64,000 bases of DNA from an uncultured Bacilli bacterium. Its GTDB lineage: Bacteria > Bacillota_I > Bacilli_A > RF39 > UBA660. Shown here piece after piece: positions 18,206 through 40,716 of this stretch. The stretch covers positions 87,380-151,379 of the forward strand of contig CAKOSH010000002.1 of assembly GCA_934102215.1 (NCBI GenBank), in the 5' to 3' direction. The notes beneath the pieces are model-generated. The model was not told the DNA's origin, made no database searches, and saw only the letters and a program-made list of their open reading frames with translations. The translations under genes and the position numbers were made by a program. Every line of letters starts with the position of its first letter. The stretch's first letter is position 1.

Positions 18206-18215
18206 GGAGGACGAA

Positions 18216-24858: not shown

Positions 24859-24869
24859 CATTATTTATA

Positions 24870-24900
24870 AAAAATCATTTGACTTTTCAAATGATTTTTT
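24870..24900 (+). terminator. Rho-independent terminator (AAAAATCATTTGA-CTTT-TCAAATGATTTTTT)
   Basis: Perfect inverted repeat plus a T-tract after recO. Confidence 0.6.
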
Positions 24901-24913
24901 TGTGAAATTTTAT

Positions 24914-24942
24914 TTGACATATTACAACAAAACAAATATAAT
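24914..24942 (+). promoter_or_regulatory. Consensus sigmaA promoter TTGACA-N17-TATAAT for the glycan cluster
   Basis: TTGACA at 24914-24919, a 17-nt spacer, then TATAAT at 24937-24942. Lies 40 bp upstream of the first cluster gene. Confidence 0.5.
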
Positions 24943-24982
24943 ATAGTTAGTTTTTGAAGGGTTGACTTAAAGTGGGGTAGAG

Positions 24983-25606
24983 ATGTATTTAAGAATAAAA
25001 TATTTTTTTGATAAGATAATTGCATTTTTGCTGGTAATAATATTTTTACCTTTTCTATTTATTATTATGCTATTAATTAGATTTGGGGATAGTGGTTCTG
25101 CTTTCTATTTTCAAAAAAGAGTTGGTCAACATGGAAAGGTATTTAAAATAATCAAATTTAGAACTATGAAGAATGATTCTGAAAATCTATTGCTCACAAT
25201 GTTAAAAGATAATAAGATAAGAAATGAATGGTATGAAAATTATAAATTAAAAGAAGATCCAAGAGTTACTAAAATAGGAAAAGTTTTACGCTATTATTCA
25301 CTGGATGAATTACCTCAATTAATTAATGTATTAAAAGGAGATATGTCAATTATTGGGCCAAGACCGGTTGTAATTGATGAATTACAAAAATATGGAAAAT
25401 ATAAGCAAACTATTTTGAAATTAAAGCCAGGTATAACTGGATGGTGGGCTTGTAATGCAACGCCATTTACAACTTACAATGAGAGAATACAATTAGAATA
25501 TTATTATGCAAAAAATGTTTCTTTTCATTTAGATATAAAATGTTTTGCTAGAACAGTTTATACTTTGGTTTTTCAAAGAAAAAATAAAGATAGGAGTAAA
25601 ATATGA
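24983..25606 (+). CDS. Initiating sugar phosphotransferase (bacterial sugar transferase family, PglC/WbaP C-terminal-domain type)
   Basis: 207 aa. N-terminal TM, then KPGITGWWACN and a DELPQLINVLKGDMSIIGPRP motif. Confidence 0.75.
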   Translation: MYLRIKYFFDKIIAFLLVIIFLPFLFIIMLLIRFGDSGSAFYFQKRVGQHGKVFKIIKFRTMKNDSENLLLTMLKDNKIRNEWYENYKLKEDPRVTKIGKVLRYYSLDELPQLINVLKGDMSIIGPRPVVIDELQKYGKYKQTILKLKPGITGWWACNATPFTTYNERIQLEYYYAKNVSFHLDIKCFARTVYTLVFQRKNKDRSKI

Positions 25607-26631
25607 AAGTTTTAATAATGTGTGGTGGAACTGGAAAACGTTTATGGCCAAAGTCTTGTGTAGAAAAGCCTAAACAATTCCAAGCAGTGTTAGATGATAA
25701 AACTATGTTGCAACATACTTACGAAAGAATGCGCAAGTATGTTAGTAAGGATGACATATATTTTTCAACGACTGATGAATATTCAAAATATATATTTGAC
25801 CAAATTATTGAAGTTAATACAAAAAATATTGTTATTGAACCTGTATCAAAAAATACTGCTCCAAGTATTTTGTTATCAGTTTTGTATATATATAATCAGA
25901 TAAAGTCTAATTTTAATTTGATTGTTGTACCATCAGATCATTTAATATTAAATGAATCCGAATTTATAAAGAAACTAGAAAAAGCTGATGGAGAATTAAA
26001 TCAAAATAAAGATAGAATATTGACATTCGGTATTATCCCTAATAGAATTGAAACTGGTTATGGTTATATTAATATCGATATGGACAAGTGCGATAATTAT
26101 GGCTTTTTTAAAGCAAATACATTTGTAGAAAAGCCAAATTATGAGCTTGCTAAGAAGTATTATGATTCAAAAAAGTACCTATGGAATAGTGGAATCTATA
26201 TTTTTAATTCAAATTTTATATTAAACGAATTTAAAAAAAATAACAAAAAGGATTTTGATATAATCAATAATATTGTTAACAATACTACTGACACACAAAA
26301 AGAATATAATAAGTGTGAAAATATTTCTATTGATTATGCAATAATGGAAAAATCAAATGATATATATGTTATGCCAGTTGATTTTCAATGGGATGATTTG
26401 GGAACATGGTGTTCATTAAAAAAATATTTACTTGATGAAGATAAAAAAAATTATAGGCGTGGTAATGTGACTTTTAATAAGTGTATTAACAATTTTGTTT
26501 ATAGCGATGATAAAGAAATAATAATTAATGATTTAGATGATATATACTGTATAAATTGTAATGGTAAAATAATTGTTGGAAAGGTTGATAAATTATCTGA
26601 CGTTTATTTGCTAAAGGAGAATGAAAAATGA
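25603..26631 (+). CDS. Mannose-1-phosphate guanylyltransferase-like nucleotidyltransferase
   Basis: VLIMCGGTGKRLWP...PKQF N-terminus typical of ManC/GDP-mannose pyrophosphorylase. 342 aa. Confidence 0.65.
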   Translation: MKVLIMCGGTGKRLWPKSCVEKPKQFQAVLDDKTMLQHTYERMRKYVSKDDIYFSTTDEYSKYIFDQIIEVNTKNIVIEPVSKNTAPSILLSVLYIYNQIKSNFNLIVVPSDHLILNESEFIKKLEKADGELNQNKDRILTFGIIPNRIETGYGYINIDMDKCDNYGFFKANTFVEKPNYELAKKYYDSKKYLWNSGIYIFNSNFILNEFKKNNKKDFDIINNIVNNTTDTQKEYNKCENISIDYAIMEKSNDIYVMPVDFQWDDLGTWCSLKKYLLDEDKKNYRRGNVTFNKCINNFVYSDDKEIIINDLDDIYCINCNGKIIVGKVDKLSDVYLLKENEK

Positions 26632-27794
26632 AAATTCTATATTTAACAAAATTTTTGCCTTATCCAGCATATGGTGGTGGCCTAAAAAGAAACTTAGCAT
26701 GGATTAATTTTTTTAAAAAGAGAGTTGAAATTGATGTGCTTGGTTTTTATAATGAACAAATCAATAATAAAACATATTTTGATTATAATGATAACTTAAA
26801 AATTAATTATATTAAATTTAAAAAAAATCTTGTTAAAGCTGGGTTAATGAGTATTGCTCATGGTAGTTCATTAATAAATAGTCAATACTATTCTAAACAA
26901 ATGGAAAATAAAATTAAAGAACTTATAAAAAATAATAACTATGATTATGTTTTTATTTCTGAAATTGCTATGGCACAATATGCTAAATTTACGGGTAATA
27001 TACCAATTTTATATGATGATCATAATGTTGAATATGAACTTATAAATAGAACGTCAAAATTTTCTAAATTTCCAATAAATATTTTTTTGAAATTGGAAAG
27101 TAAAAAAATAATGAAAGAGGAAACTAAAATTCTTACTAACTCTTATAAAAATTTTTTTGTTAGTGATAGGGATTTGAATTTTTTCGATAGTAAAATTAAA
27201 GATAAAAGTATTGTTGTTAATAATTCATTTGATGATAGATATGATATAAATAGTGAAATGAGTGACATGCCAACCTTAATATTTGTAGGTAATTTATCAT
27301 GGAAACCTAATAAGCATGGATTATTGCATTTCATAAATAATGTTTATTTAAAATTATATGAGAAAAATAAAAAAATTAAATTTAATATTGTTGGTTCTTG
27401 TTTGCCAAAAGAAATAGCTAATTTTAATAATAAGTATAATATAAGTATTTATGAGAATGCAACTGAACAGGAAAAAGATAAATTAATTAATGAATCTTGG
27501 ATTACAATTGTTCCAGTGTATTTTGGTAGTGGAACTAGAATAAAAATACTAGAATATTGGTCACATGGAAAAACTGTATTAAGTACTTCAATTGGTGCTG
27601 AGGGATTAGAAAGTTCAAAAGGAACATTTATCATTGATACAGATGACGAACAAATTAATAGTTTTCAAAAATTATTACTTTCTAAAGAAAAACTAAAAGA
27701 ATTTGGTAAATATAATTATAAAATATTTAAAGAAAATTATTGTGAGGAGGTTATATATGAAAATACTTTATATAAGTCCATCTTTACCAAATGA
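26628..27794 (+). CDS. Glycosyltransferase, GT-B fold (GT1/GT4-like)
   Basis: 388 aa. C-terminal GT1 motif region (EYWSHGKTVLSTSIGAEG). Confidence 0.6.
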   Translation: MKILYLTKFLPYPAYGGGLKRNLAWINFFKKRVEIDVLGFYNEQINNKTYFDYNDNLKINYIKFKKNLVKAGLMSIAHGSSLINSQYYSKQMENKIKELIKNNNYDYVFISEIAMAQYAKFTGNIPILYDDHNVEYELINRTSKFSKFPINIFLKLESKKIMKEETKILTNSYKNFFVSDRDLNFFDSKIKDKSIVVNNSFDDRYDINSEMSDMPTLIFVGNLSWKPNKHGLLHFINNVYLKLYEKNKKIKFNIVGSCLPKEIANFNNKYNISIYENATEQEKDKLINESWITIVPVYFGSGTRIKILEYWSHGKTVLSTSIGAEGLESSKGTFIIDTDDEQINSFQKLLLSKEKLKEFGKYNYKIFKENYCEEVIYENTLYKSIFTK

Positions 27795-28911
27795 TTTTTC
27801 AAGAATTAGAACTAAAAATATAATAAATTCACTATTAAATGATGGTAATTCTGTGAGTCTTGTTTCATTAACAACTGAAAAAGATTATAAATTACGTGAT
27901 GAAAATTTATTAAAAAAATTGAATGATGTAAAAATATTTAAGCAAAGTAAATTAACTTCAATATTAAATTGCTTTTTAAATCTATTTTTGCCTATTTCAC
28001 TGCAAGAAGCTTATGTTAATAACAGAAAACTTCATAAATATTTAAAAAAATGCAACAAGGAATATGATTTGATTTATATCAAAAGGTTAAGAATGGCTCA
28101 ATATGCAAAATATTTTGATGATAAAAAGGTTATTATTGATTTAACAGATTCATTAACTAAATATTATGAGAGAGTTTCTAAAAAAGTAAATGGATTAAAA
28201 AAGATTTTAAACTTAGAAGAATATTTTAAACACAAAATTAATGAAAAAAGAGTTGTAAATAAGTATAAATCAGTAGTTTGTTCAAATGAAGAAAAAAAAT
28301 ATTTGATAAATAAGTTAGGTTGCAATGTTAATAATATTTATGTTGTTGAAAATTTAATAGATTTTGATTTATGGGATGTGTCATTTAATATTAAAAAGTT
28401 AAAAGAAAAAAATAAGTTGGTTTTTTCTGGAATGATGGATTATGATCCTAATATTATTGCAGTAAATTATTTTGCTAAAAATGTGTTGGATAAATTGGAT
28501 AGTAAATATGAGCTGTATGTAATTGGAAAAAATAAATCAAAAGAATTAATTAGTAATAAAAAAATTAAATACATTGGATACGTTGAAAGTATGCGAGATG
28601 AATTAAGTAAATACGATATTTATGTGTGCCCAATAATAGCTGGTTCAGGTGTTAAAAATAAGATTTTACAAGCTATGTCAGTGGGTTTACCTATAGTTTC
28701 AACGAAATTAGGAGTTGAAGGTTTGAATAAAGAATGTAAAAAAAATATATATGTAGTAAATGACAATTTTGATTTTTTAAATGCCATCGATAAAATAAAT
28801 AATTTGTCAGATTTAGAATTTGAGAAATTAATTAAGGAACAAAAAGACTGCATAAAGAAAAGTTATGATATATCAGTTGCAGCGAAAAAAATACGAGGTA
28901 TTATGAAATGA
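27758..28911 (+). CDS. Glycosyltransferase, GT-B fold (GT1/GT4-like)
   Basis: C-terminal KILQAMSVGLPIVSTKLGVEG motif. Start placed at the ATG at 27758 (MKILYISPS), inside the longer track ORF. Confidence 0.6.
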
Positions 28912-29564
28912 AAAAGATTTGTTTGGTATATCATGCAATTGGAGAAAGTAATAAATTTATGAGTGTTGATTTTAATCAATTTCAATTACAAATAGATTAC
29001 TTGATAAGAAAAAAGTTTGAGTTTTGTCATATCGAAGAACTTTTAAACAAGAATAATGGAAACAATGTATGCATATTTTTCGATGATGCATTGCCATCAA
29101 GTGAAATTGCAATGCAATATTTAGAAAAAATGAATATAAAATATTCGATTGGAGTTATAGAAAATAATAGTGTATGTATTAATTTTAAAAAATTAAATTA
29201 TGCTGAATTGTTATTTCATACAAAAAATCATAGGAACTTATGTGAATTGACTGAAGAAGAGTTAAAATACGAATTAAAAGTTGATAACCAAAATTTAAAT
29301 AAAAAAATAATTATTTATCCTATGGGCTTATATAATAAAAGAGTTTTGGAAAATGTTATTAATAAAAAATTTTCGATTGGATTAACAGTATTACCATTTC
29401 ATATAACAAAAAGAAGTAATAAGCTAAAGCTACCAAGAATATGTGTAAATGGTTATTTAAAATTGAGTAAATTTAAATTTTTTTTAACAAAATCAGGCAA
29501 TTGTTATTTACATTTAGCTTTTTTAAAAAGAAAAGTTTTAAAACAAAATTATTTAGATAGGTAG
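28908..29564 (+). CDS. Polysaccharide deacetylase-like (CE4/NodB-type) protein
   Basis: FFDDALPS (a TFDD-like motif 1) and HTKNH (H-x3-H motif 2). 218 aa. Confidence 0.4.
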   Translation: MKKICLVYHAIGESNKFMSVDFNQFQLQIDYLIRKKFEFCHIEELLNKNNGNNVCIFFDDALPSSEIAMQYLEKMNIKYSIGVIENNSVCINFKKLNYAELLFHTKNHRNLCELTEEELKYELKVDNQNLNKKIIIYPMGLYNKRVLENVINKKFSIGLTVLPFHITKRSNKLKLPRICVNGYLKLSKFKFFLTKSGNCYLHLAFLKRKVLKQNYLDR

Positions 29565-29571
29565 GTGTTAT

Positions 29572-30609
29572 ATGAATAAAATTTTAAGTGTAATAAGATA
29601 TAAATATTCTTTAAATCAACTTTTTAATTATGCAAAATACAAATTATCAAAAAAGAAGGAAATTTTAAATTATAGACCAATATGGACAATATTATATCTT
29701 AGCGATTTATGCAATTTAAAATGTAAAATGTGTCCCCATCACGCAAAAAATGATAATGATTTTGAGTTTCAAAAAAAATTAGGAAAAAAGTTTATTAGTT
29801 TAGAATTAGTTGCTAAAATATATGAAAAATTTCCGGAAACAATATTAGTAATGTTAGGTGGAGTAGGAGAACCAACGCTTCATCCAAAGTTTAAAGAAAT
29901 AGTTGAGTTGACAGCAAAGAACAGAAAGAAAATAAATTTAATAACTAATGGAACATTATTAACTGATGACACTATGGAATATATAGTTAAAGAAAAGTAT
30001 TTTAATCAAATATCTATAAGCTTGAATGCTTCTAATGAAAGTGAATATCAAAAAATTAGTGATGTTGATAAATCATATTTTTACGTAGTTGTTAATAATA
30101 TTAAGAAACTTGTTGAATTAAAGAAAAAATATAATTCGAAAATAGAAATAGTTGTTAGTGGAGTATGTAGCAAAGAATTTGTAAATTCCGCTTATGATTT
30201 TTTAAGATTTTGTGATAGTTTAGGAGTGGATAGAATTGATTTACATAGATATATTGACTTTGATATTCATGATTCATTAACCGATATTGATGAATTTTCA
30301 GATGACATATTAAAAATTCATCGATTTGCTAGTAAAAATATTAAAACTAGATGTAATTTACCACATCAAATAACAAAAACATCCTATAAAAAAGGTTGTG
30401 AGTGGTTCTTTAAAAATATATCATTTGATTCATATGGAAATATTGGAAGTTGTGGTAGAGTTATTTCTCCTGATTCGAGTTATGGAAATATAAACAATGA
30501 TGAAGATATATGGAATAATAAATACATGCAAAAAATGAGAAAAGATTTTATCGAAAAAGATGTTGTAACTAAATATTGCAAAAAATGTATAGAGAATCAT
30601 CAAATTTGA
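29572..30609 (+). CDS. Radical SAM enzyme with a C-terminal SPASM/twitch-like Cys cluster
   Basis: CNLKCKMC (CX3CX2C) near the N-terminus. C-terminal cysteines CEWFF...GSCGRV...YCKKC. Confidence 0.75.
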   Translation: MNKILSVIRYKYSLNQLFNYAKYKLSKKKEILNYRPIWTILYLSDLCNLKCKMCPHHAKNDNDFEFQKKLGKKFISLELVAKIYEKFPETILVMLGGVGEPTLHPKFKEIVELTAKNRKKINLITNGTLLTDDTMEYIVKEKYFNQISISLNASNESEYQKISDVDKSYFYVVVNNIKKLVELKKKYNSKIEIVVSGVCSKEFVNSAYDFLRFCDSLGVDRIDLHRYIDFDIHDSLTDIDEFSDDILKIHRFASKNIKTRCNLPHQITKTSYKKGCEWFFKNISFDSYGNIGSCGRVISPDSSYGNINNDEDIWNNKYMQKMRKDFIEKDVVTKYCKKCIENHQI

Positions 30610-30652
30610 AATATAAATATAAATAAAAAATATAATAAGCTGGAGTAATTTT

Positions 30653-31141
30653 ATGAATGGATTTCTTGTAAATGATGTATTTATTTTTATCTTTGATATA
30701 TCCTTAAGAAAAAGTATAAGTGAGTTTATTAATATGAATAAAAATAAGCTGTTTTATATAACTGAATATAATAAACCTTTTTTAGTTAATGAAAATTTAT
30801 TTTTTAATTTAAGTTATAGTGGAAAATATGGTGTTTTAGTAATATCCAAAAGAAATATTGGTGTTGACATAGAAAAAATAAGAAAATTTGAATATAAAAA
30901 AATTTGTAATTCATTATTTTCAAAAAAAGAAATTGGATACTGTTCTAATATTTACAAATTCTATACTTTGTGGACTTTAAAAGAAGCTTATATTAAATTT
31001 ATTGGTCATGGAATAAATGAAATTAGAAAAATAATTTTTGAAGTGAATGATAATAAGTTATATAACAGTAAAAAAAACTCAGAATTTTTTTCGTTAAAAT
31101 TTCAAGATTATATAATATCAGTATTTAAAGAAAAGGAGTAG
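30653..31141 (+). CDS. 4'-phosphopantetheinyl transferase (Sfp type)
   Basis: GVDIEKI (GxDxE) and WTLKEAYIKFIGHG (W..KEA..K..G) motifs. The true start may be an internal ATG. Confidence 0.65.
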   Translation: MNGFLVNDVFIFIFDISLRKSISEFINMNKNKLFYITEYNKPFLVNENLFFNLSYSGKYGVLVISKRNIGVDIEKIRKFEYKKICNSLFSKKEIGYCSNIYKFYTLWTLKEAYIKFIGHGINEIRKIIFEVNDNKLYNSKKNSEFFSLKFQDYIISVFKEKE

Positions 31142-31145
31142 GAAT

Positions 31146-32246
31146 ATGAATATAAGAAATAGATGTTTTATTACTATTAATGTTGATGAAGAACTTGATT
31201 TGAAAATAATAAAAAATATAAAAAAAGTTGAAGATTTGTCTGGAAAATATGATGCTATTATTTTAGGGTGTAAAGACCAACTTATAAATGAAAAGAAATT
31301 AGATGATATGGGATTGGTAAGATTTAAAGATTATTTTTGTATTCAGGAAATTCTAAAATTACTTAATAAAAAGAAATTATGTTTGTTATTGGGTAGCTGC
31401 ATTTTATACGACATAGATAAAATGATTAGAAACTCTAATTTATTTATGAATGAATATGAAATAATATATAAAGATGTTGATATAGTAGAAGAATTATCAT
31501 TAAATTTCAATTATCCTGATGAATTATTATCAAATGTTGATTTGTTATTATATACATTTGATAATTCAAAATATAGAATGAGCAATGATGATGTTATCTC
31601 TAAACTTAATAAGACATGTAAAAAAATATCTATTTCAGGTTGTATTTTCAGCGGATATTTTCCTCAAACAAATTTAGGAAAAAATGAAACGAATCCATAT
31701 GGGTATGAAGATTATATAAATAAAATTTTTATTTGTGAATTGAAAGATAATAATATTGATAAAATGATTAGTGCTGGTGAAAATATCGATAAAATAATTT
31801 ATAAATTAGAAAATGCAAATTATTATTCAAAATTATTTTTAGATGAATGGTTTGATAAAAGTTTGAGATTTTTAAAAATAAGTGAGTTAAATTGTGATAT
31901 TAAGGTGTACGATTTTGTTAAAAATAATTACAAAAATGATTTATTATATAGATCTTCAGAACATCCAACATCAATAATAATAAAAGAAATTTGTAATCAA
32001 ATTATAAATTTTCTTAATATTAATGATAAGAGATTTTTAAACGATAAAGTAACCAATGTTACTGTAGATATGCCAATATATCCTTCTGTTCTAAAATATC
32101 TTGGAATTTCAAAAAATAATGTTAAGATTTCTTTATGTAACATAAAAACAAAAAAAATAGATTATGTAACTTTTGAAGGATATATTAATACATATTATAA
32201 TTTGTATTTAGATTATAAAGAAAGGACAAATAAAAATAATGAATAA
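31146..32246 (+). CDS. Hypothetical protein (soluble, cluster-specific)
   Basis: 366-aa ORF, translationally coupled within the cluster. No diagnostic motif recognised. Confidence 0.4.
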   Translation: MNIRNRCFITINVDEELDLKIIKNIKKVEDLSGKYDAIILGCKDQLINEKKLDDMGLVRFKDYFCIQEILKLLNKKKLCLLLGSCILYDIDKMIRNSNLFMNEYEIIYKDVDIVEELSLNFNYPDELLSNVDLLLYTFDNSKYRMSNDDVISKLNKTCKKISISGCIFSGYFPQTNLGKNETNPYGYEDYINKIFICELKDNNIDKMISAGENIDKIIYKLENANYYSKLFLDEWFDKSLRFLKISELNCDIKVYDFVKNNYKNDLLYRSSEHPTSIIIKEICNQIINFLNINDKRFLNDKVTNVTVDMPIYPSVLKYLGISKNNVKISLCNIKTKKIDYVTFEGYINTYYNLYLDYKERTNKNNE

Positions 32247-33819: not shown

Positions 33820-34627
33820 TATTTCTTTTATAATTTCAACATTAGGAAATTCTAATAAATTAAATGCTATGATAAGTTTTCTAACAAATTCCTTAAATGA
33901 TGAAGTAATTGTTGTTGATAATAGTGCAAATAATATTTTGAAAGGTAAATACAAAAATTGTATAACTATATGGGAAAAAAAATCCGGATTAAGTAACGCA
34001 AGAAATTGTGGCGCGCATTTAGCAAAAAATAATTTAATGTTTTTTCTTGATGATGATTTAATATTACCAAATGATTTTTTTGAAAGCCTAATTAATTATA
34101 GAAATATTGAAAATGAATTAGTTGGTTTTAAAATAACACCTGAGTATATTCCTGATTACTTACCTCAAAAATATTGGTATTTAGTGGGATACAAAAATTT
34201 GTATACTAAAAAAACTGTACTGAAAAAGAATGAATATTTGGGTGGATGTGCGTTATTAATGAGTAAAAAAGTATATAATGATATAGGAGGGTTCAATTCT
34301 AAATTTGGTCATACTAGAGAAAATATGGGTGCTAATGAGGATGTTTTATTTCAACAACAAGCATTAAAAAAGAAATATACAATTATATTTGAACCCAAAA
34401 TAGATATAATACATTGTTGGAATGGTAGTTATGAGTCATTATTAAAGAGAATTGAAATTCAAGCACGAAATGATTATCAATTAGATAGAAAAAGTATAAA
34501 AAAGTATTTAAAAATTTTAAAATTTCTAATTTTGAAAAAAATATATAAAAATCAATGTAGTAAATTGTTTTATTACAAAAAATATGTTACATATATTAAT
34601 ATGTATAAATCTGAAAGGAAGTGGTAA
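33800..34627 (+). CDS. Glycosyltransferase family 2-like
   Basis: ISFIISTLGNSN...VVVDNS...FLDDD GT-A motifs (DXD). Confidence 0.55.
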   Translation: MEKRMNNISFIISTLGNSNKLNAMISFLTNSLNDEVIVVDNSANNILKGKYKNCITIWEKKSGLSNARNCGAHLAKNNLMFFLDDDLILPNDFFESLINYRNIENELVGFKITPEYIPDYLPQKYWYLVGYKNLYTKKTVLKKNEYLGGCALLMSKKVYNDIGGFNSKFGHTRENMGANEDVLFQQQALKKKYTIIFEPKIDIIHCWNGSYESLLKRIEIQARNDYQLDRKSIKKYLKILKFLILKKIYKNQCSKLFYYKKYVTYINMYKSERKW

Positions 34628-34628
34628 A

Positions 34629-35351
34629 ATGACTGAATATGCTATAATTCTTGGCGCAGCTTCTGGAATTGGGAAAGCATGTTATAAGAAAATGGTTAGT
34701 GAATATCCTAATATTAGCTATATTTTGGTGGATAAGGAAGTGGTAAATATTAGAGATAATGATAAATATATTAAAACTGACTTAAGTAATAATAAAGAAT
34801 TAGAAGCTTTACTTAAAAAAATAGATAGTTTAAATGGTAAAATTATTTTTTTAGTTAATTCTGTTGGATATCAAGAAAATATTGATGTATTAGATATATC
34901 TAAATATGATATGCTTAAAATGTTTGAAACAACTGTTTTTTCTATTTTCAAAATTGAACAATTGGTTCTTAAAAAAATGATAAAATATCAAACAAACAAT
35001 CAATCTATTGTTAATATAACTTCGATTCATTCAAATATAATAAGAGAGATTGCACATTATTCTTCTGCTAAAGCTGCTTTGACAATGCTATCTAAGGAGT
35101 TAGCATATAGAGTTGCTGAACATAATATAAGGATAAATTGTATTGAACCTGGGTCAACACTTACACCTTTATTAAAGAAAGACTTATATAATGATACTTT
35201 AATAAATGAGGCTGCAAAAAATATTCCCATGAAAAGACATGCATATCCTGAAGAAATTGCTGAATTAGCATGGTTTTTAGTGTCTGAAAAGTCAAAATAT
35301 ATAACAGGCGTTTCAATACAATGTGATGGTGGTTTGTCACTAATAATATAA
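34629..35351 (+). CDS. Short-chain dehydrogenase/reductase (SDR)
   Basis: ILGAASGIGKA Rossmann motif, catalytic YSSAKAA (YxxxK) and a C-terminal GGL motif. Confidence 0.75.
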   Translation: MTEYAIILGAASGIGKACYKKMVSEYPNISYILVDKEVVNIRDNDKYIKTDLSNNKELEALLKKIDSLNGKIIFLVNSVGYQENIDVLDISKYDMLKMFETTVFSIFKIEQLVLKKMIKYQTNNQSIVNITSIHSNIIREIAHYSSAKAALTMLSKELAYRVAEHNIRINCIEPGSTLTPLLKKDLYNDTLINEAAKNIPMKRHAYPEEIAELAWFLVSEKSKYITGVSIQCDGGLSLII

Positions 35352-35367
35352 TAAGGTAATGTAATAT

Positions 35368-36588
35368 ATGGGTGAGTTAGGTATAAATTTAGGATGGTAT
35401 GAACATTCTGTTATAGAATTTTCAAAATATATAGATAAGTGTTTAAAACTTAACATAAAATATGTTAGGGTAGTTTTGTCATCTTGGAGTTTAAATGCAT
35501 TAATGGATTTTAACAAGATTAAAGAATTATATTATGTATTAGATTTATGCAATAAAAATAATATTGCTGTTCATTTAGTATTAATGAATTTTGTTGATTT
35601 TAAAGATAATGTGTACAATGATACAAATAATGATAAATACTCTTGGAAATATAATAAGTATCATAAAGAAAATAAATTCGATAAGAAAATGTTTTTTAAA
35701 CATTTTGATTCTAATCTAAAAAGTGATATTGATAATCTTTTTCAAGGCATATTAAAATATGACAATATTAAAAAGGTAGAAATAATGAATGAAGTTGATC
35801 AACTTGAAATAAATGAAAAAATAATCTTCTCATGGATTAATGAAATAGTTTTCTTTTTAAAAATGAAATATCCAAATTATGAGTATATTGTAAGTATTTC
35901 AGATTATACGAAATTTAAAAAATATAAAAAAAATATATTGTGTAATGTAGATTTGCATATGTATAGTTTTCCTTATGACTATATGAGTTTAAATATGATA
36001 AAAACAGATACAAGATTTGTAGGTGAATATGCAAAATATTCTGATAGACCAAATATTGAAGCACTAAATTCAAAAATTTATTTTGCTTCTGGTTTATGGT
36101 TATCAAGTTTATTAAATTATGAAATTACACCTTTACATTGGTGGTGGAATGAAGTTATTTTTTCTAAAGATTATCAAGATATAATAAAAAATTTTAATTC
36201 AAATAAATTTTCTTTGGATTCAGTGGAATATGAGTTAATAAATATGAATTGTATAGGTGATAAAATTGATAGACATGAAATGAAAAAAGTATTTGTTAGA
36301 TTGAGCAGTTTATTTTTACATCCAAGTCGTATTTTTGATGAATATAATAATATAAAAAAATATATAAGTAAAAAAATTTTTAGTAGAAATAAATTTATAT
36401 ATTTTAAAAAAGATGAATTATTCTTTATAGAAACATATAGCACAATAGATATTAGTAACCTTTGTTTAAATAAATGTTTATGTATTTACGACGTGATTAA
36501 TAAGATAAAGTTTTCAAAAAAGAAAATATTGTCACCTGGATTATATATAGTTGGAGATGTTGAAAATGAAGTTTTTAGTAGGCTGTGA
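35368..36588 (+). CDS. Hypothetical protein, possibly a TIM-barrel glycoside-hydrolase-like (GH5/GH113-type) fold
   Basis: 406 aa. IMNEVD resembles the GH5 NEP acid/base motif. Weak. Confidence 0.35.
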   Translation: MGELGINLGWYEHSVIEFSKYIDKCLKLNIKYVRVVLSSWSLNALMDFNKIKELYYVLDLCNKNNIAVHLVLMNFVDFKDNVYNDTNNDKYSWKYNKYHKENKFDKKMFFKHFDSNLKSDIDNLFQGILKYDNIKKVEIMNEVDQLEINEKIIFSWINEIVFFLKMKYPNYEYIVSISDYTKFKKYKKNILCNVDLHMYSFPYDYMSLNMIKTDTRFVGEYAKYSDRPNIEALNSKIYFASGLWLSSLLNYEITPLHWWWNEVIFSKDYQDIIKNFNSNKFSLDSVEYELINMNCIGDKIDRHEMKKVFVRLSSLFLHPSRIFDEYNNIKKYISKKIFSRNKFIYFKKDELFFIETYSTIDISNLCLNKCLCIYDVINKIKFSKKKILSPGLYIVGDVENEVFSRL

Positions 36589-37474
36589 TGTAAAAAATGA
36601 TTCACTAAAAATATTTGATTATGATTTTAAAAATAGTACATATTTTATTAATACAATTAATGTCGAGTATATATCTTGCATGTATAGTGTTAATAAGACT
36701 ATATATGCTTTAACTGATCTTAATTTTAAAAATAGCAATACTGGTGGTTATTTAAATATAATTACAGGAGATAAAGTTAAAAAAGTAATGTTAAACTCTG
36801 AAAATCCTTGTCATATTGCAAAACATAAAAACGATTTTTTTATATCAAATTGTTCTTCTAATTTTATAACTGTATATAATATCAAGAAAAATATAGAAAA
36901 GAAAATTCCGTTAAATTGTAATTCTAATACGCATTTTACTTTTTTTACTAAATATGGATTGTTAATAATTGATTCAATGAGAAATCAATTATTAGTATAT
37001 AATAAATCTAAAATAACAATGTTATATCAATTTAAAATGAATGATTTTCCAAGACAATTTTGCGTGCATGACAAAATCTTATATGTTATTTGTGAAAAAT
37101 CGTGTAATTTATATAGTCTTGAATTAAAAAATAATTGTGTAAAATTAGTTAATTTACAAAACTTTAAATTTGATAAAAATTCTACTGGTTGTGTAATTAA
37201 AAGTATAGATAAGAATATATTGATGTGTACAATAAGAGGGAGTAATAAAATATTAATATTCAATGTGAAAAATAAAATACCTGTATTGATAGGAACATAT
37301 GATAGTGAAGGCAACTGTCCAAAGGATTTTATTGTTAAAGATAAAATTCTTTTAGTAGTAAATGAAAAATCAAATTCTATATCAATTTTTAAAATTGAAA
37401 ATGGCTATAAATTAAAACTAATAAAAAAAATAAAAAGAATCATTAGCCCTGCGTGCATATCTTTTTATGGTTAA
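36551..37474 (+). CDS. Hypothetical protein (possible beta-propeller)
   Basis: 307 aa. Repetitive beta-rich composition. No diagnostic motif. Confidence 0.35.
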   Translation: MEMLKMKFLVGCDVKNDSLKIFDYDFKNSTYFINTINVEYISCMYSVNKTIYALTDLNFKNSNTGGYLNIITGDKVKKVMLNSENPCHIAKHKNDFFISNCSSNFITVYNIKKNIEKKIPLNCNSNTHFTFFTKYGLLIIDSMRNQLLVYNKSKITMLYQFKMNDFPRQFCVHDKILYVICEKSCNLYSLELKNNCVKLVNLQNFKFDKNSTGCVIKSIDKNILMCTIRGSNKILIFNVKNKIPVLIGTYDSEGNCPKDFIVKDKILLVVNEKSNSISIFKIENGYKLKLIKKIKRIISPACISFYG

Positions 37475-37500
37475 GCTTATTTAGGAAGGAATATAACAAT

Positions 37501-38505
37501 ATGTTTAGTGTAGTGATTAAAAGTGATTTGAATGAAAAAGATATTAAGGATTGGAAATATCTTTGGAAAAATTCCAAATATAGAAGAGTATATAATTCTT
37601 ATGAGTGGTATAATTCATGTAAAAAGAATTTTAAAGGCAAATATTTGGCTTTATATGTTTACAAAGATAATAAATTGGCGGCTATTTTACCATTTAAAGT
37701 ATTATTTGGCAAAGTTTATGTTTCACCAGGTGGTAGATTTATAGATAAAAGTTCAAATTTATTTAAAGAAAATTGTAATATAATTAATTTTGTAATAAAA
37801 AAGCAATTAAAAAATAAAATAATTATATTTAAAGAAGTTCCAGAAGAAGAATTGAAATTTTATGATAATGAATGCTTTTGCAAAATGAGTTCTATTAATC
37901 CATATGCTAAAATTGATGAAAATTTATCAGTAATTTCTAAAAGAACAATTAAAAATATAAATAAAATATTAAATGAAAATAATGGTGACTTTTCATTAAA
38001 AATATATAAAGGCGATAATATAAGAAATAATATAAATACTGTCTTTGAAATTGAAAAAAATAGTAATAAAGTAAAAAAGCATAGAACTATTTTTAATAGC
38101 AAAAAGGTTTGTAATTTTTTTAACGATATATCATCATATGAAGGAACAAGATTATTTGTTTTGGAATATAAGAGTAATAGTATTGCGCATACATTAGATT
38201 TTTTGAATAGTGATTATCTACTAGGTTGTCACACTGCCTATTTAGATGAATATAGTAAGCTATTGCCAGGAAAAATATTAACATATTTTGTAATGCGTTA
38301 TTGCTATGCAAACGATATATTAAAATATGATTTTTCAAGAGGTGAATGTGATAAAAAAAATCAATTTGCTAAAGACAAAACATATAATTATAATTTAATA
38401 TATTGTGGTTATTGTTTAAAGCTAATTTTAAAATTATATTATAAAATAATTTATTTAATGAAGATGGTAAAGAGATTTTTAAGAAAATATAAAATTATTA
38501 GATGA
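37501..38505 (+). CDS. FemAB/GNAT-like acyl- or aminoacyl-transferase family protein (tentative)
   Basis: Roughly 335 aa. N-terminal region resembles FemAB/BioF2-like acetyltransferase proteins. Start placed at the internal ATG at 37501. Confidence 0.4.
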   Translation: MFSVVIKSDLNEKDIKDWKYLWKNSKYRRVYNSYEWYNSCKKNFKGKYLALYVYKDNKLAAILPFKVLFGKVYVSPGGRFIDKSSNLFKENCNIINFVIKKQLKNKIIIFKEVPEEELKFYDNECFCKMSSINPYAKIDENLSVISKRTIKNINKILNENNGDFSLKIYKGDNIRNNINTVFEIEKNSNKVKKHRTIFNSKKVCNFFNDISSYEGTRLFVLEYKSNSIAHTLDFLNSDYLLGCHTAYLDEYSKLLPGKILTYFVMRYCYANDILKYDFSRGECDKKNQFAKDKTYNYNLIYCGYCLKLILKLYYKIIYLMKMVKRFLRKYKIIR

Positions 38506-38587
38506 AAAAAACTGTTATTAATATGAGATAAGGATTTTATTTTAAAAAAATAAATGCTATAATTACAAATAGTGAGTGGTGATTTAA

Positions 38588-39613
38588 ATGATTACGTATG
38601 CTGGAACGTTTATTACTGGTTTTTCAAGTGTGGTAGAAGATAATTTGAAATCAAAAATTAATAATTGTGAAATATTAACTGTATTAGATGGATTAATAAT
38701 ATTTAGATGTAGTGAAGATATATTGAACTCAAGAATTCCGTTTTTGAACAATATATATTATGTTATTGATTTTAAACAGACAGATTCAAATACTAATTAT
38801 AATTTTTCTTTACAAAATTTTGCTAAAAAAGTTAATGTTAATATAAATGAACTAAAAAAATTTATTAAGAAAAATAGTGATTTTAAAATATTAACTATAG
38901 ATAAAAACCAGCCTACAAGTGTAAACTTTAAACTGATTGAACCATTAGAAAAGTTGATTATATCAAAATGTGGATTAAGGCTTAATAAGAGAAATCCTAA
39001 AACTGAATTTATTATTTTAAGAAGAAGTGAGGATCTTATATTATTTATGTTAAAAATATCTAACAATCGCCAAACAGAAAAAACATTGAAAAAAGGTGAA
39101 TTACGACCTGAACTTGCTAATTTAATGATATCTCTTTCAAATCTTAATGATACTGATATAGTTATAGACCCATTTTGTGGTAGTGGTGCAATACCTAAAG
39201 AAGTTATAAGACATTTTCCATATAATATGTGTTTTGCAAGTGATATAGATGATAATTTAGTTTCAATATTAAAAAAAGAGTATAAAGAAAATAATAAAAA
39301 ATTATTTATCAAAAAGAGAGATGCTTTAGATTTGAGCTATTTTGAAAATAATTTTATTGATGCCATTATAACTGATCCCCCATGGAATGTATACAATAAA
39401 CAAGATATAAATTTTGAAAAATTTTACGAAAAAATGTTGATTAGTTTTAAAAGAATTTTAAAAGATAGTGGTTGTATAATTATTTTAATGGGTAACATTG
39501 AAGAATTTGAAAAAGCTTTGTCTTTAGTTCCAGAATTAATTTTATTTAATAAAATTGATACTCTAGTTAATGGTAAGAAGGCAAGTGTGTATGTAATAAA
39601 GAAACACATATAG
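38588..39613 (+). CDS. Class I SAM-dependent methyltransferase, THUMP/UPF0020 family (m2G RNA or N6-adenine type)
   Basis: Motif I VIDPFCGSGAIP followed by motif IV ITDPPW, with about 170 aa N-terminal to motif I. Confidence 0.55.
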   Translation: MITYAGTFITGFSSVVEDNLKSKINNCEILTVLDGLIIFRCSEDILNSRIPFLNNIYYVIDFKQTDSNTNYNFSLQNFAKKVNVNINELKKFIKKNSDFKILTIDKNQPTSVNFKLIEPLEKLIISKCGLRLNKRNPKTEFIILRRSEDLILFMLKISNNRQTEKTLKKGELRPELANLMISLSNLNDTDIVIDPFCGSGAIPKEVIRHFPYNMCFASDIDDNLVSILKKEYKENNKKLFIKKRDALDLSYFENNFIDAIITDPPWNVYNKQDINFEKFYEKMLISFKRILKDSGCIIILMGNIEEFEKALSLVPELILFNKIDTLVNGKKASVYVIKKHI

Positions 39614-39621
39614 GAGATTAT

Positions 39622-40566
39622 ATGAAAATAATTCAATTTGAAAGTAATGTGAGAGACTATATATGGGGTGGAACAAAATTAAGAAATAAATATCATAAAA
39701 AATCAAAATGTAATGAAATAGCCGAATCATGGGAATTATCTGCTCATTTAGAATATCCTTCAATAATAACAAACGAAAATATTTCTTTTAATGAGTTGCT
39801 GAAAAGAAAAGATATTCATAGGTTGTTAGGATATAATTATTTAAAATACTCATCATTTCCATTATTAGTAAAATTAATAGATACTAAAGATAAATTATCT
39901 GTTCAAATTCATCCTACAAATGATTATGCTAAAAAGTATGAGAATGATAAAGGAAAAAGTGAACTTTGGTATATTTTAGAAGCAAAAAAAGATGCTGGTA
40001 TATATATTGGGTTAAAATCAAGATATTCTAAGTATGAAATAGAAAAACTTGTTAAAGATAATAAACTATTTGGTGAACTTAATTTTTTTCCTGTAAAGGC
40101 TGGTGATAGTTTTTATATTCCTGCTGGAACTATTCATGCTATTGGAAGTGGAATAACTTTAGTTGAAGTTCAACAAAACTCGAATATTACTTATAGATTA
40201 TATGATTATAATAGAATAGATAAGAATGGTAAAACTAGAGAATTGAACATAGATAAAGCGTTGGATGTATATGATGTTAAGTTTAATCAATTAAAATATA
40301 TAAAGAAAAATATTAATACTTTATCATTCGATAAAGCATTTAAAAATCATTACTTTAAAATAAAATTGTTGAAGATAAAAAACGAATACAATTTAAAAAC
40401 AAGTTATAAGTCGTTTAAGTTTGTAATTTGTTTAGGTGGAAGTTGCTTTGTAAAGACAGCTAAAAAAATAATTTTTTTAGAAAAAGGTGATTCTTGTATG
40501 ATTTTGGCAAATAGTAGATATAACTTATTTGTTGGTGAATGTAATTTAATGGTTATATATATATAA
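39622..40566 (+). CDS. manA: Mannose-6-phosphate isomerase, class I
   Basis: SVQIHPTND motif and cupin fold. 314 aa. Confidence 0.65.
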   Translation: MKIIQFESNVRDYIWGGTKLRNKYHKKSKCNEIAESWELSAHLEYPSIITNENISFNELLKRKDIHRLLGYNYLKYSSFPLLVKLIDTKDKLSVQIHPTNDYAKKYENDKGKSELWYILEAKKDAGIYIGLKSRYSKYEIEKLVKDNKLFGELNFFPVKAGDSFYIPAGTIHAIGSGITLVEVQQNSNITYRLYDYNRIDKNGKTRELNIDKALDVYDVKFNQLKYIKKNINTLSFDKAFKNHYFKIKLLKIKNEYNLKTSYKSFKFVICLGGSCFVKTAKKIIFLEKGDSCMILANSRYNLFVGECNLMVIYI

Positions 40567-40635
40567 AAACATTTAATAAAAATAAATATTTAATGATATT
40601 AAATTTGAAATAATAATATCTTTTTTTAAAATAAA

Positions 40636-40662
40636 TTAGCACTCATGTATTGACAATGCTAA
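40636..40662 (+). promoter_or_regulatory. CIRCE-like operator 1 (TTAGCACTC-N9-CAATGCTAA)
   Basis: 7/9 and 9/9 matches to the CIRCE half-sites. Overlaps the -35 of the hrcA promoter. Confidence 0.55.
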
Positions 40663-40677
40663 AAATAGTGATATAAT
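40650..40677 (+). promoter_or_regulatory. SigmaA promoter TTGACA-N16-TGaTATAAT for the hrcA operon
   Basis: TTGACA at 40650-40655 and an extended -10 TGATATAAT ending at 40677. Confidence 0.55.
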
Positions 40678-40681
40678 TAAT

Positions 40682-40708
40682 CTAGCACTGAAAGAAAAGG
40701 AGTGCTAA
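40682..40708 (+). promoter_or_regulatory. CIRCE operator 2 (CTAGCACTG-N9-GAGTGCTAA)
   Basis: Near-consensus CIRCE inverted repeat with a 9-nt spacer, immediately upstream of the hrcA SD and start. Confidence 0.7.
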
Positions 40709-40716
40709 GGAGGTAT

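Follow-up and report, generated by a model that had tools for sequence, protein, structure and literature searches.

A strain-variable glycan island of an uncultured Bacilli bacterium with an optional carrier-protein cassette containing a glycine-type adenylation domain

The analysed window, a stretch of 64,000 nucleotides from an uncultured human-gut Bacilli bacterium, carries between recO and hrcA an accessory island of 15.75 kb (window positions 24867-40620), which takes the place of a spacer of about 164 bp in strains whose flanks are 97% identical and in which hrcA directly follows recO. When the empty-site locus L047 was compared with the window by blastn, homology stopped at position 24866 and restarted at 40621, and the loci L048-L051 were found to be empty sites, too. 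At 90% identity, the RecO cluster contains 313 members versus 15 in the cluster of the island's fused adenylation-carrier protein (A-PCP). The GC content of the island is 22.2%, that of the flanks 23.9% and 27.2%; no repeats were found at the junctions, and no integrase was found.

The island is a single operon of 16 tightly packed, co-directional genes, all on the plus strand, whose reading frames lie at the originally predicted positions, neighbouring genes sharing 4-38 nt or lying 1-82 nt apart. Overlaps of 4 nt connect the gene of the initiating transferase (PGT) with manC, manC with the first and the second GT-B gene (GT1b) with that of the CE4-like deacetylase, and overlaps of 8 nt connect the genes of the WcbI-family protein, A-PCP, and the GT-A glycosyltransferase GT2. 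Within the island, the first gene is preceded by a consensus sigma-70-type promoter (TTGACA-N17-TATAAT; 24914-24942, plus strand). Only two sites between 24000 and 41000 match this consensus in 12 of 12 positions, the second one being the hrcA promoter at 40650. Weaker promoter-like matches did not outnumber those in shuffled sequence, so that weight is given solely to the perfect match located in the intergenic leader.

Profile searches against Pfam and NCBIfam confirmed the enzyme classes of the original prediction, as the operon structure had confirmed its promoter and its coupled, co-directional genes. The PGT (24983-25606) is a small monotopic polyprenyl-phosphate sugar-1-phosphate transferase (Bac_transf, E = 1e-59) matching the C-terminal domain of WbaP/EPS_sugtrans proteins, with a hydrophobic helix at residues 12-30. 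It is followed by a ManC-like mannose-1-phosphate guanylyltransferase (25603-26631; NTP_transferase of the GMP_PMI-like type, E = 2e-36), which covers positions 4-339 of the 467 of TIGR01479 and is devoid of a PMI domain, and by two GT-B glycosyltransferases, GT1a (26628-27794; Glyco_trans_1_4; best NCBIfam match to the stp1-like family TIGR03087, far below cut-off) and GT1b (27757-28911; Glyco_trans_1_4, E = 6e-19). The CE4-like polysaccharide deacetylase (28908-29564) reaches 20.3 bits with Polysacc_deac_1, under the cut-off of 23.1; its FDD (D59, D60) and HTxxH (H104, H108) motifs are kept in the L007 homologue, and the L055 homologue has an unmarked match to the same family. A radical SAM/SPASM enzyme (29572-30609; Radical_SAM, E = 4e-18; SPASM, 25.3 bits; all NCBIfam matches far below cut-off) comes next. 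Downstream of the cassette described below are encoded GT2 (33812-34627; Glycos_transf_2, E = 5e-12), a classical SDR resembling FabG and glucose dehydrogenase (34629-35351; adh_short_C2, E = 4e-44), a FemAB/CelD-like GNAT (37501-38505; Acetyltransf_6, PF13480, 29.2 bits, cut-off 22), and, as the last gene and within the island boundary, the class I mannose-6-phosphate isomerase ManA (39622-40566; TIGR00218, 154 bits, cut-off 116).

Where three proteins of unknown function had been listed, a WcbI-fold protein, a GH5-like protein, a beta-propeller, and an m2G-type methyltransferase can now be named. The GH5-like protein (406 residues, 35368-36588) has no match in Pfam and no sequence match in the PDB, and its AF2 model (pLDDT 88.6) adopts a predicted clan GH-A TIM barrel with a beta-sandwich, for which Foldseek retrieved the GH5 mannanase ManDH5 as best match (E = 9e-13) as well as PslG. 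Its invariant residues N141-E142, H197, Y199, and E220 include an intact NE...E catalytic signature, it is predicted to be cytoplasmic as it has no signal peptide, and it belongs to a very small family of 33 representatives in 1.84 billion. The adjacent gene (36566-37474) encodes a lactonase-type seven-bladed beta-propeller (PF10282, E = 8e-17), a variable accessory component found in part of the clusters that have the cassette and in part of those that lack it. The methyltransferase (38588-39613), of UPF0020 type with a DPPW motif (PF01170, E = 1e-19), has a catalytic domain resembling N2-guanine RNA methyltransferases; its matches to TIGR01177 and EmtA-like proteins are far below cut-off, no THUMP domain was detected, and its N-terminal 165 residues have no domain match.

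None of the 16 proteins has a condensation, MBOAT/DltB, or DltD domain, in agreement with the original prediction, and none is a flippase, polymerase, ligase, or exporter, so that a surface polysaccharide is a presumed product. Only the PGT has a membrane segment; as neither hydrophobic segments nor signal peptides were found in the other 15 proteins, the chemistry is expected to be cytoplasmic.

Between the radical SAM and GT2 genes lies a cassette of three genes. The first one (30653-31141) encodes a short Sfp-type 4'-phosphopantetheinyl transferase (PPTase; ACPS, E = 3.5e-12; AusB-like, E = 5e-23) with the motifs GVDIE and WTLKEA. The third one (32239-33819) encodes A-PCP, a protein of 526 residues with AMP-binding and PP-binding domains (TIGR01733-like); in an alignment with LgrA, the carrier match runs through GIDS474I, whose Ser474 is invariant. 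DltA models reach only 177-184 bits with cut-offs of 476-560, which speaks against a plain DltA. The mannose-fed glycan cluster thus holds a genuine A-PCP didomain and a dedicated PPTase, as had been proposed. The ten-residue specificity code of the A domain, DILQLGLVYK in the window and DILQLGMVWK in every other homologue encoded in a glycan cluster, is of the glycine type: published glycine codes are DILQLGMIWK, with Leu/Met299, Leu/Met322, Ile/Val330, and Trp331 (PMC12283262), and DILQLGVI (PMC5466765). The window protein has Tyr in place of the canonical Trp at position 331. The code was mapped with a GrsA segment, and as a self-check this mapping reproduced DAWTIAAIC. Judged from the code, glycine is most likely the substrate.

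The second cassette gene (31146-32246), which overlaps the start of the A-PCP gene, encodes a WcbI-family protein (PF18588, 60.4 bits, cut-off 29.2). The only significant fold matches of its AF2 model are the structures 4bqn and 4bqo (E = 5e-11) of WcbI from Burkholderia pseudomallei, and its Cys85 and His273, both invariant, align with Cys14 and His201 of WcbI, which hold the acetyl thioester (PMC4104973). An additional N-terminal region of about 75 residues is poorly modelled. WcbI binds CoA and acetyl-CoA and 'requires an unidentified partner'; an acetyltransferase function has been suggested for it, but it has never displayed transferase activity (PMC4104973). By its modelled fold, the window protein is a putative CoA/thioester-binding acyltransferase, which we propose to act as a glycyl-S-PCP:glycan transferase; the original prediction, having seen no transferase of the Dlt or condensation type, had called for a novel transfer step.

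Comparison with related clusters separates a conserved core from this cassette. The core (GT1-GT1-CE4-rSAM-GT2-FemAB-like-SDR-GH5-like-MTase, together with PGT and ManC) is common to at least ten other lineages, the methyltransferase being found in nearly all related clusters, whereas WcbI and A-PCP occur in only four (the window, L007, L057, and L067). In all four, they are adjacent or overlap; the window has them after the radical SAM gene, the other three after the methyltransferase gene. The PPTase was seen only in the window lineage. The core without the pair, in conserved gene order, is present in L059, L062, L071/L077, L072, and L076. L055 has neither A-PCP nor WcbI between the radical SAM and SDR genes, and protein searches of the L053 lineage (349 contigs) gave no matching A-PCP or WcbI cluster; the cassette-negative loci L055, L060, and L063 end shortly past the methyltransferase gene, where a cassette may follow further downstream. 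PPTase, WcbI, and A-PCP hence form an optional decoration cassette.

The best overall explanation, to which we assign a probability of about one half, is a two-layer island in which the WcbI-family protein glycylates an undecaprenyl-linked glycan in the cytoplasm with Gly-S-PCP as donor. In the first layer, PGT, ManC/ManA, the two GT-B and one GT-A glycosyltransferases, the CE4-like deacetylase, the radical SAM/SPASM enzyme, the SDR, the cytoplasmic GH5-like protein, the FemAB/CelD-like GNAT, and the m2G-type methyltransferase would work at the cytoplasmic membrane face, building and tailoring on undecaprenyl phosphate an oligosaccharide that contains mannose. PGT, ManC, ManA, the three glycosyltransferases, and the mannanase-like fold of the GH5-like protein support such a glycan assembly. 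In the second layer, the PPTase would convert the PCP to its holo form, and the A domain would adenylate glycine and charge the carrier with it to give Gly-S-PCP. Cys85 and His273 of the WcbI-family protein, whose gene is translationally coupled to that of A-PCP, may then hold the phosphopantetheine thioester between them, and the protein may move the glycyl group onto the lipid-linked glycan, either to a hydroxyl group (ester) or to an amine that the CE4-like deacetylase has exposed (amide). Genes outside the island would have to provide for export, polymerisation, or ligation.

It is possible, but unlikely, that these roles are swapped, i.e. that the GNAT accepts Gly-S-PCP in place of aminoacyl-tRNA and glycylates the glycan, the WcbI-family protein being an acetyl-CoA-dependent O-acetyltransferase. 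The GNAT shares the operon with A-PCP and belongs to PF13480, a member of the FemAB-type GNAT superfamily; FemX-type enzymes use aminoacyl-tRNA as donor, and the Fem enzymes of Staphylococcus aureus transfer glycine. Moreover, WcbI of B. pseudomallei is an acetyl-CoA-binding protein with a proposed acetyltransferase role (PMC4104973), and distant WcbI homologues are present in glycan clusters devoid of a carrier, so that a plain acetyl-CoA-dependent role is conceivable. However, the GNAT is a core protein with abundant homologues of about 50% identity in clusters lacking A-PCP, and its donor can therefore not generally be Gly-S-PCP; it is WcbI, not the GNAT, that is gained and lost along with A-PCP and shows translational coupling with it.

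Somewhat less likely still, the island makes, instead of a surface glycan, a small bioactive compound of the glyco or nucleoside type: sugars would be attached to and altered on a carrier-tethered unit, as in mitosane formation, and the methyltransferase would confer self-resistance by RNA methylation. In mitomycin biosynthesis, these enzyme classes do act on an ACP-bound substrate (PMC8621148), the island proteins other than PGT are soluble and include no flippase, polymerase, or exporter, and the methyltransferase, which is kept across the core clusters, has RNA N2-guanine methyltransferases including EmtA as best named relatives. Yet these matches score far below the family cut-offs and a THUMP domain was not detected, a polyprenyl-phosphate sugar transferase belongs to the conserved core, GH5/PslG-like hydrolases are typical of exopolysaccharide operons, and the carrier is missing from most core clusters, whose product can thus not be carrier-built.

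The original prediction, in which an amino or acyl group is tailored on the PCP by the radical SAM enzyme and the SDR and then passed on to the glycan by a transferase that is either novel or FemAB-like, is weakened by the comparative data and now appears improbable. All enzyme classes do reside in one operon, and butirosin provides a precedent, as a carrier-bound aminoacyl group is tailored and then transferred to a sugar by the BtrI/J/K/H system. But the order of the radical SAM, SDR, and GNAT genes is kept in clusters without A-PCP, PCP, or PPTase, which argues against carrier-dependent tailoring enzymes, and glycine, the predicted substrate, has no side chain to be tailored. Furthermore, a class-III aminotransferase stands in place of the SDR in the L053/L071 lineage, an exchange in the carrier-less L071 that points to a keto-sugar-type substrate. 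That A-PCP and PPTase are a stand-alone NRPS-like fragment or DltA-like ligase that merely happens to lie in the island, functionally unrelated to the glycan genes, is disfavoured and very improbable: homologues of about 27-38% identity do have RiPP-type, BtrH_N, or VanW genes instead of glycan genes as neighbours, but those of at least 51-53% identity are all located in core glycan clusters, always beside WcbI and never in NRPS clusters, the genes overlap their neighbours in one operon, and the DltA scores are low.

Among known systems, mitomycin and butirosin biosynthesis also combine ligase, carrier, glycosyltransferase, deacetylase, reductase, and radical SAM enzyme, but the island-type glycosyltransferases, deacetylase, radical SAM enzyme, and SDR persist without a carrier in related clusters, the core includes a polyprenyl-phosphate PGT, and a BtrH-type transferase is absent from the island. 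The mitomycin set comprises the ligase MitE, the ACP MmcB, the ACP-dependent glycosyltransferase MitB, the deacetylase MitC, the reductases MitF/H, and the radical SAM enzyme MitD (PMC8621148). PslG (5bx9) and the GH5 beta-mannanases (9gpe) share with the GH5-like protein the clan GH-A barrel and the signature of an NE acid/base and an E nucleophile, and PslG is a glycosidase of an exopolysaccharide operon, as the island protein belongs to a mannose-fed glycan operon; the island protein differs by its missing signal peptide, its tiny family, and the lack of sequence-level family membership. WcbI of B. pseudomallei has Pfam family, fold, and thioester-holding Cys/His pair in common with the window protein, and its gene, too, lies in a cluster for a manno-configured capsule, but identity is only about 17-18%, the N-terminal extension is missing, and WcbI stands alone rather than being coupled to an A-PCP. 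In the DltABCD system, as predicted here, an amino acid is adenylated, bound as thioester to a phosphopantetheinyl carrier, and passed to a cell-envelope glycopolymer, and DltA is among the named matches of the A domain. In the island, however, ligase and carrier are fused into one protein, glycine instead of D-alanine is the predicted substrate, DltB and DltD are absent, and, with PGT as sole membrane protein, the chemistry must be cytoplasmic, unlike that of Dlt. AlmG, a membrane enzyme of the lipid A late-acyltransferase type, has no counterpart in the island, AlmF is a separate carrier, and the acceptor predicted for the island, whose host is a Bacilli organism of the Gram-positive type, is a glycan initiated by the PGT. 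AlmEFG of Vibrio cholerae, which modifies lipid A with glycine (PMC4278540), nevertheless shows how a glycine-activating DltA-like enzyme and a carrier decorate a surface glycolipid. A carrier mini-pathway in a glycan locus is of a known kind, since an AMP-ligase-type enzyme and a carrier within an O-antigen cluster provide the N-acyl substituent of a sugar in the wbe system. Its tetronate branch includes a carrier protein and a hexapeptide-type acetyltransferase, in contrast to the WcbI fold of our candidate, and builds and tailors an acyl group in place of the predicted plain amino acid. This branch of V. cholerae O1 consists of wbeK-O, with wbeL needed for tetronate (PMC3441752). Alongside Dlt, AlmEFG, and Wbe-tetronate, the Gly-S-PCP/WcbI route would represent a new form of carrier-protein-dependent glycan decoration.

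The window is very AT-rich (GC content about 25%) and contains, between recO (24133-24858) and the hrcA-grpE-dnaK genes (from 40702), 16 co-directional ORFs on the forward strand, which overlap their neighbours by 4-38 nt or lie no more than 82 nt from them. Ahead of the first gene, its leader carries TTGACA-N17-TATAAT (24914-24942), a 12/12 match to the promoter consensus and one of two such matches within 24000-41000, the other being the hrcA promoter. In a nucleotide alignment with the empty-site strain L047 (L-numbers designate the compared contigs or loci), whose flanks are 97% identical, homology stops at 24866 and restarts at 40621, and about 164 unrelated bases take the place of the intervening DNA; the island is therefore defined as 24867-40620, including the promoter, a methyltransferase gene and manA. 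Its GC content is slightly lower (22.2%), and no direct repeats, integrase or tRNA were found at its junctions. In the segment 40621-40701, some 30 bp separate the end of the island from the downstream hrcA control region, in which the 12/12 promoter (40650-40677, with extended TG) is flanked by inverted-repeat elements (TTAGCACT...AGTGCTAA) resembling CIRCE operators. No Rfam family was detected in the window.

On contigs with a RecO more than 90% identical, recO is followed directly by hrcA, and clustering at 90% gives 313 members for RecO versus 15 for the adenylation-carrier didomain protein (A-PCP) of the island. More than 20 human-gut metagenomic contigs, some of them from Hadza samples, encode the identical A-PCP protein, and its gene context is the same in all. 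Only a minority of gut strains that are otherwise nearly identical carry the island, which makes it a candidate cause of surface differences between strains of this uncultured human-microbiome member. The window has further variable sites. In a second strain-variable region (12459-19359), three ORFs are missing from the 93-97% identical strain L047; they encode a 1419-aa subtilase (13946-18205) containing BspA-type LRRs and a dockerin, a cadherin-like protein of 382 aa (18216-19364) and a protein of 132 aa. Strain L049 carries another insert there, encoding a Peptidase_M73/DUF6273 protein. At a third point (about 47190), L047 and L049 have about 1.8 kb between dnaJ and greA, with a 120-133-aa ORF and a gene for a 475-aa SH3_3-domain protein, which the window lacks. 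Elsewhere, 4904-5557 encodes a protein of 217 aa bearing a toxin domain of contact-dependent inhibition (CdiA_C, Pfam E 8e-11), with no obvious large CdiA body upstream, and 8493-9317 a 274-aa protein whose prepilin-type N-terminal methylation motif suggests a type IV pilin or competence pseudopilin.

Profile searches against Pfam and NCBIfam recovered every domain named in the original prediction: an initiating polyprenyl-phosphate sugar-1-phosphate transferase (Bac_transf; PGT, 24983-25606), a ManC-like NTP_transferase, two GT-B and one GT-A glycosyltransferases, ManA (39622-40566), a radical SAM enzyme with SPASM domain (rSAM), an Sfp/AusB-like phosphopantetheinyl transferase (PPTase, 30653-31141), AMP-binding and PP-binding domains in the 526-aa A-PCP protein (32239-33819), a classical SDR and an Acetyltransf_6 protein (FemAB/CelD-like; GNAT, 37501-38505). 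The CE4 profile match is weak, and the conserved FDD and HTxxH motifs lend it support. The rSAM protein matches PF04055 with 66.6 bits and PF13186 (SPASM) with 25.3 bits (cut-off 21.5) and has both the CxxxCxxC cluster and the C-terminal SPASM Cys motif; it received no equivalog-level NCBIfam assignment, and a search of PDB sequences returned weak TYW1 matches only. The GNAT protein scores 29.2 bits against PF13480 (cut-off 22), and a homologue with 53% identity is named 'CelD/BcsL family acetyltransferase' in one source. In addition, a lactonase-type beta-propeller was recognized by profile match at 36566-37474; PDB sequence searches gave nothing useful for this protein or for GNAT.

The initiating PGT and the glycosyltransferases are as in Wzx/Wzy-dependent polysaccharide loci, yet among all 16 island proteins the single hydrophobic segment is the N-terminal helix of the PGT; there is no multi-pass membrane protein, and Pfam yielded no match in the island to a flippase, polymerase or chain-length regulator. 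It likewise found no condensation (PF00668), thioesterase (PF00975), MBOAT or DltD-type protein among the island products, so that these scans uphold the earlier statement that a DltB/DltD-type or condensation-domain transferase is absent. Membership in the PEP-CTERM/XrtA exopolysaccharide family (stp1/stp2 glycosyltransferases, EpsB_2 PGT, exosortase-associated ligase) was rejected, as every NCBIfam match lies far under its cut-off (TIGR03087, 109-125 versus 317 bits; TIGR03013, 148 versus 393; TIGR03098, 103 versus 592) and the exosortase is absent; the likeness is confined to the enzyme classes.

Two further members of the island were characterized by structure or motif comparison. The 406-aa protein encoded at 35368-36588 has no Pfam, NCBIfam or PDB sequence match and no signal peptide, and its family is very small (33 representatives among 1.84 billion proteins). 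Its AF2 model (pLDDT 88.6) is a (beta/alpha)8 barrel with GH5 beta-mannanases as best PDB matches in Foldseek (ManDH5, E 9e-13), PslG, the Psl exopolysaccharide hydrolase, also being found, and the clan GH-A signature of NE acid/base and Glu nucleophile is invariant or nearly so (N141-E142, H197, Y199, E220). Judged by this model, the protein would belong to clan GH-A with a GH5 fold but falls outside the GH5 sequence models. The UPF0020 methyltransferase (MTase, 38588-39613) carries a DPPW motif, and its catalytic domain comes closest, among named families, to N2-guanine RNA methyltransferases (TIGR01177, EmtA, Trm11, TrmN), all matched far under the cut-offs; PDB sequence matches span this domain only, and no THUMP or RNA-binding domain was detected in the N-terminal 165 residues even at E values up to 10.

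The 526-aa protein was expected to be an adenylation domain fused to a carrier, and this architecture stands. PF00501 is matched with E 7e-42, the core motifs A3, A5, A7, A8 and A10 are present in the translation, and the protein aligns to the A domains of LgrA and GrsA; the top match is TIGR01733 (223 bits, under its cut-off of 317), whereas the DltA equivalog TIGR01734 gives 177 bits versus a cut-off of 560. PF00550 scores 23.3 bits (cut-off 20.8), the LgrA alignment extends through the PCP so that GIDS474 aligns to its GGDS, and D473 and S474 are invariant among the A-PCP homologues; the carrier domain is accordingly genuine. Substrate prediction from the ten-residue code, as earlier proposed, was based on a GrsA-PheA segment, which reproduces GrsA's own code, DAWTIAAIC. 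The residues D150, I151, L154, Q193, L217, G219, L242, V250, Y251 and K422 give the glycine-type code DILQLGLVYK, which agrees with the Gly consensus D-I-L-Q-[LM]-G-[LM]-[IV]-W-K at 9/10 positions, the exception being W331Y; all other A-PCP homologues in glycan clusters have DILQLGMVWK (10/10). Two Gly codes have been published: DILQLGMIWK, in which positions 299 and 322 are Leu or Met, 330 is Ile or Val and 331 is Trp (PMC12283262), and DILQLGVI (PMC5466765). Because the codes of the window protein and its homologues match these, glycine is the predicted substrate, and conservation of the Asp235 equivalent indicates an alpha-amino acid.

More distant A-PCP homologues (about 27-38% identity) lie in RiPP-like, BtrH_N or VanW contexts. 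When the A-PCP alignment was scanned against contigs of GTDB species representatives, no close relative was found (best 37% identity), and these loci were rejected as related systems, since phmmer of the 16 island proteins found the A domain alone in common. Loci L010/L011 (4937-11641) encode a Gly-code A-PCP with 33% identity to the window protein, adjoining a class-II aaRS-like protein, a free PP-binding protein, a BtrH_N protein and an ABC-2 transporter, with a transposase, a serine recombinase and rSAM genes of the SPASM type nearby; they may represent another kind of system for aminoacyl transfer from a carrier, borne on a mobile element. In L039-L042 (about 8300-11400 each), from Bacilli and Clostridia MAGs, a divergent PPTase gene lies by a VanW-like gene whose translation is coupled to that of a stand-alone A domain; as Wzy_C, PrsW and PBP genes are its neighbours, this set may also be an adenylation system linked to the envelope. 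The Bacilli loci among them (L039, L040) were set aside as a different system from that of the island.

The gene between those of the PPTase and the A-PCP (31146-32246) encodes a member of the WcbI family (PF18588, 60.4 bits versus a cut-off of 29.2, profile positions 2-204 of 205), whose type protein B. pseudomallei requires to be fully virulent and to produce its capsule efficiently. In its AlphaFold model (mean pLDDT 74.5) the N-terminal 75 aa are poorly modelled, and the B. pseudomallei WcbI structures 4bqn/4bqo are the sole PDB matches in Foldseek with E <1e-3 (E 5e-11, TM 0.57-0.69). Cys14 and His201 of WcbI flank the acetyl thioester of acetyl-CoA (PMC4104973) and align to Cys85 and His273 of the window protein, both invariant in seven homologues; Tyr97 is not kept (Gly165). 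No activity was shown for the type protein, and its 'unidentified partner' has been sought since 2013 (PMC4104973). More distant WcbI homologues reside in other glycan clusters without carriers.

For the comparative survey, homologues of A-PCP, WcbI, GNAT and the GH5-like protein were searched, their contigs inspected, and all loci scored by phmmer against the 16 island proteins. The set GT1a-GT1b-CE4-rSAM-GT2-GNAT-SDR-GH5-like-MTase was found in at least 10 further lineages, usually with PGT and ManC and in largely the same order (L055/L056, NCBI MAGs GCA_036636615.1 and GCA_036639175.1; L059; L060; L061/L062; L063; L065; L067; L076; L007; and L070/L071/L077, the lineage of L053). This nine-gene core (window 26628-39613), which includes neither a flippase nor a polymerase, thus recurs in a small number of lineages, most of them from the gut. 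WcbI and A-PCP, in contrast, were found in four lineages only (the window species, L007, L057 and L067), adjacent or overlapping in all four; they lie between rSAM and GT2 in the window, together with the PPTase, and directly after the MTase in the other three. Both are missing from the long-context loci L059, L062, L071/L077, L072 and L076, in L055 the SDR follows rSAM directly, and for the very abundant L053 lineage (349 contigs for its GNAT) protein database searches found no corresponding A-PCP or WcbI cluster. As the survey separates core from cassette, rSAM, SDR, GNAT, CE4 and MTase are assigned to the glycan core and predicted to be independent of the carrier. The beta-propeller does not strictly co-vary with the cassette, as L072, L060 and L062 have the former without the latter.

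Aminotransferase genes occur in some of these clusters. In L053/L070/L071/L077, which IS66/IS110 remnants interrupt, a class-III (BioA-like) enzyme occupies the SDR position, a swap that may point to a keto intermediate as the substrate of the SDR. In the clade-B cassette-bearing cluster L007 (11565-16569), A-PCP is followed by a 57-aa ORF, a 532-aa class I/II aminotransferase (best match GntC-like, far under cut-off), another radical SAM enzyme and a phosphoesterase of the PHP family; within 20 kb, no PPTase was seen. The 526-532-aa Aminotran_1_2 gene by A-PCP (L007/L053) was considered as a glycine-using alpha-oxoamine synthase and rejected: by NCBIfam it is an ordinary aminotransferase of class I/II, and there is no such gene in the window.

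Taken together, we favour, at about even odds, the reading that the WcbI-family protein of the island and the fused Gly A-PCP glycylate a lipid-linked glycan on the cytoplasmic side. A bolder version, with a rough probability of 0.35, is that WcbI-family proteins are carrier-protein-dependent acyl or aminoacyl transferases, that the B. pseudomallei partner is a phosphopantetheinyl carrier and, separately, that the core is an undescribed glycoconjugate pathway of a few gut Bacilli. It is a good deal less probable than the favoured reading that GNAT is the glycyl transferase and WcbI an acetyl-CoA O-acetyltransferase; this division of labour is biochemically plausible, but GNAT is ubiquitous in cassette-less clusters while WcbI co-varies with A-PCP. 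Somewhat more doubtful still is a mitomycin-like small-molecule pathway (PMC8621148) with the MTase as RNA-modifying self-resistance gene, which would suit the lack of export and polymerase genes; that the PGT is conserved and that most core clusters have no carrier both argue against it. The original prediction that rSAM and SDR tailor the carrier-bound group, with the FemAB-like protein as a candidate for its transfer, was not borne out and is improbable, because the same genes occur in core clusters without A-PCP and WcbI, and glycine has no side chain; the finding that it said would refute it, homologous blocks confined to standalone NRPS or fatty-acid contexts, was not made, the close A-PCP homologues sitting in glycan clusters. 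That A-PCP is an NRPS fragment unrelated to the glycan genes is very improbable in view of synteny and translational coupling.

According to the favoured glycylation reading, ManA and ManC would supply GDP-mannose, the PGT would prime undecaprenyl phosphate, and the three glycosyltransferases would extend a mannose-containing oligosaccharide, which CE4, rSAM, SDR, GNAT, MTase and the cytoplasmic GH5-like protein would tailor or trim, all core steps taking place on the cytoplasmic side. The cassette would add a single decoration: once the PPTase has activated the PCP and the A domain has charged it with glycine, the WcbI-fold protein would take the phosphopantetheine thioester into its CoA cleft and move the glycyl group to an acceptor, either a hydroxyl or an amine exposed by CE4. 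Export and attachment would have to be encoded elsewhere in the genome.

Aminoacylation of surface glycans, as in D-alanyl teichoic acids and glycyl lipid A, alters surface charge, antimicrobial-peptide resistance and immune recognition, and to our knowledge only two transfer chemistries are understood for it, DltB/DltD and AlmG. If the proposal is true, A-PCP and the WcbI-fold protein would constitute a third, DltB/AlmG-independent and cytoplasmic route, moving as a mobile gene pair; its main value lies in a concrete, testable hypothesis for WcbI-family function. The tetronate branch of V. cholerae O1 wbe likewise involves an ACP. Carrier-protein-dependent decoration of envelope glycans is already known from Dlt, AlmEFG (PMC4278540) and the wbe tetronate branch (PMC3441752), and our literature search found no directly matching precedent for A-PCP/WcbI or a glycyl-polysaccharide. 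Because the defining features of the Dlt, Alm and PEP-CTERM families were tested and not found, the island is placed, by its sequence, outside all three. Dlt consists of the DltA equivalog, a separate DltC, the MBOAT protein DltB and DltD, whereas the island has a fused carrier, no multi-pass membrane protein and no DltD-like match. Compared with Dlt, AlmEFG and wbe together, it is distinguished by a fused Gly-type A-PCP, by a WcbI-fold partner in place of DltB/DltD, AlmG or a hexapeptide acetyltransferase, by wholly cytoplasmic components, and by an optional WcbI-A-PCP gene pair, joined by the PPTase in the window lineage, whose setting is a gut-Bacilli core cluster that is otherwise undescribed.
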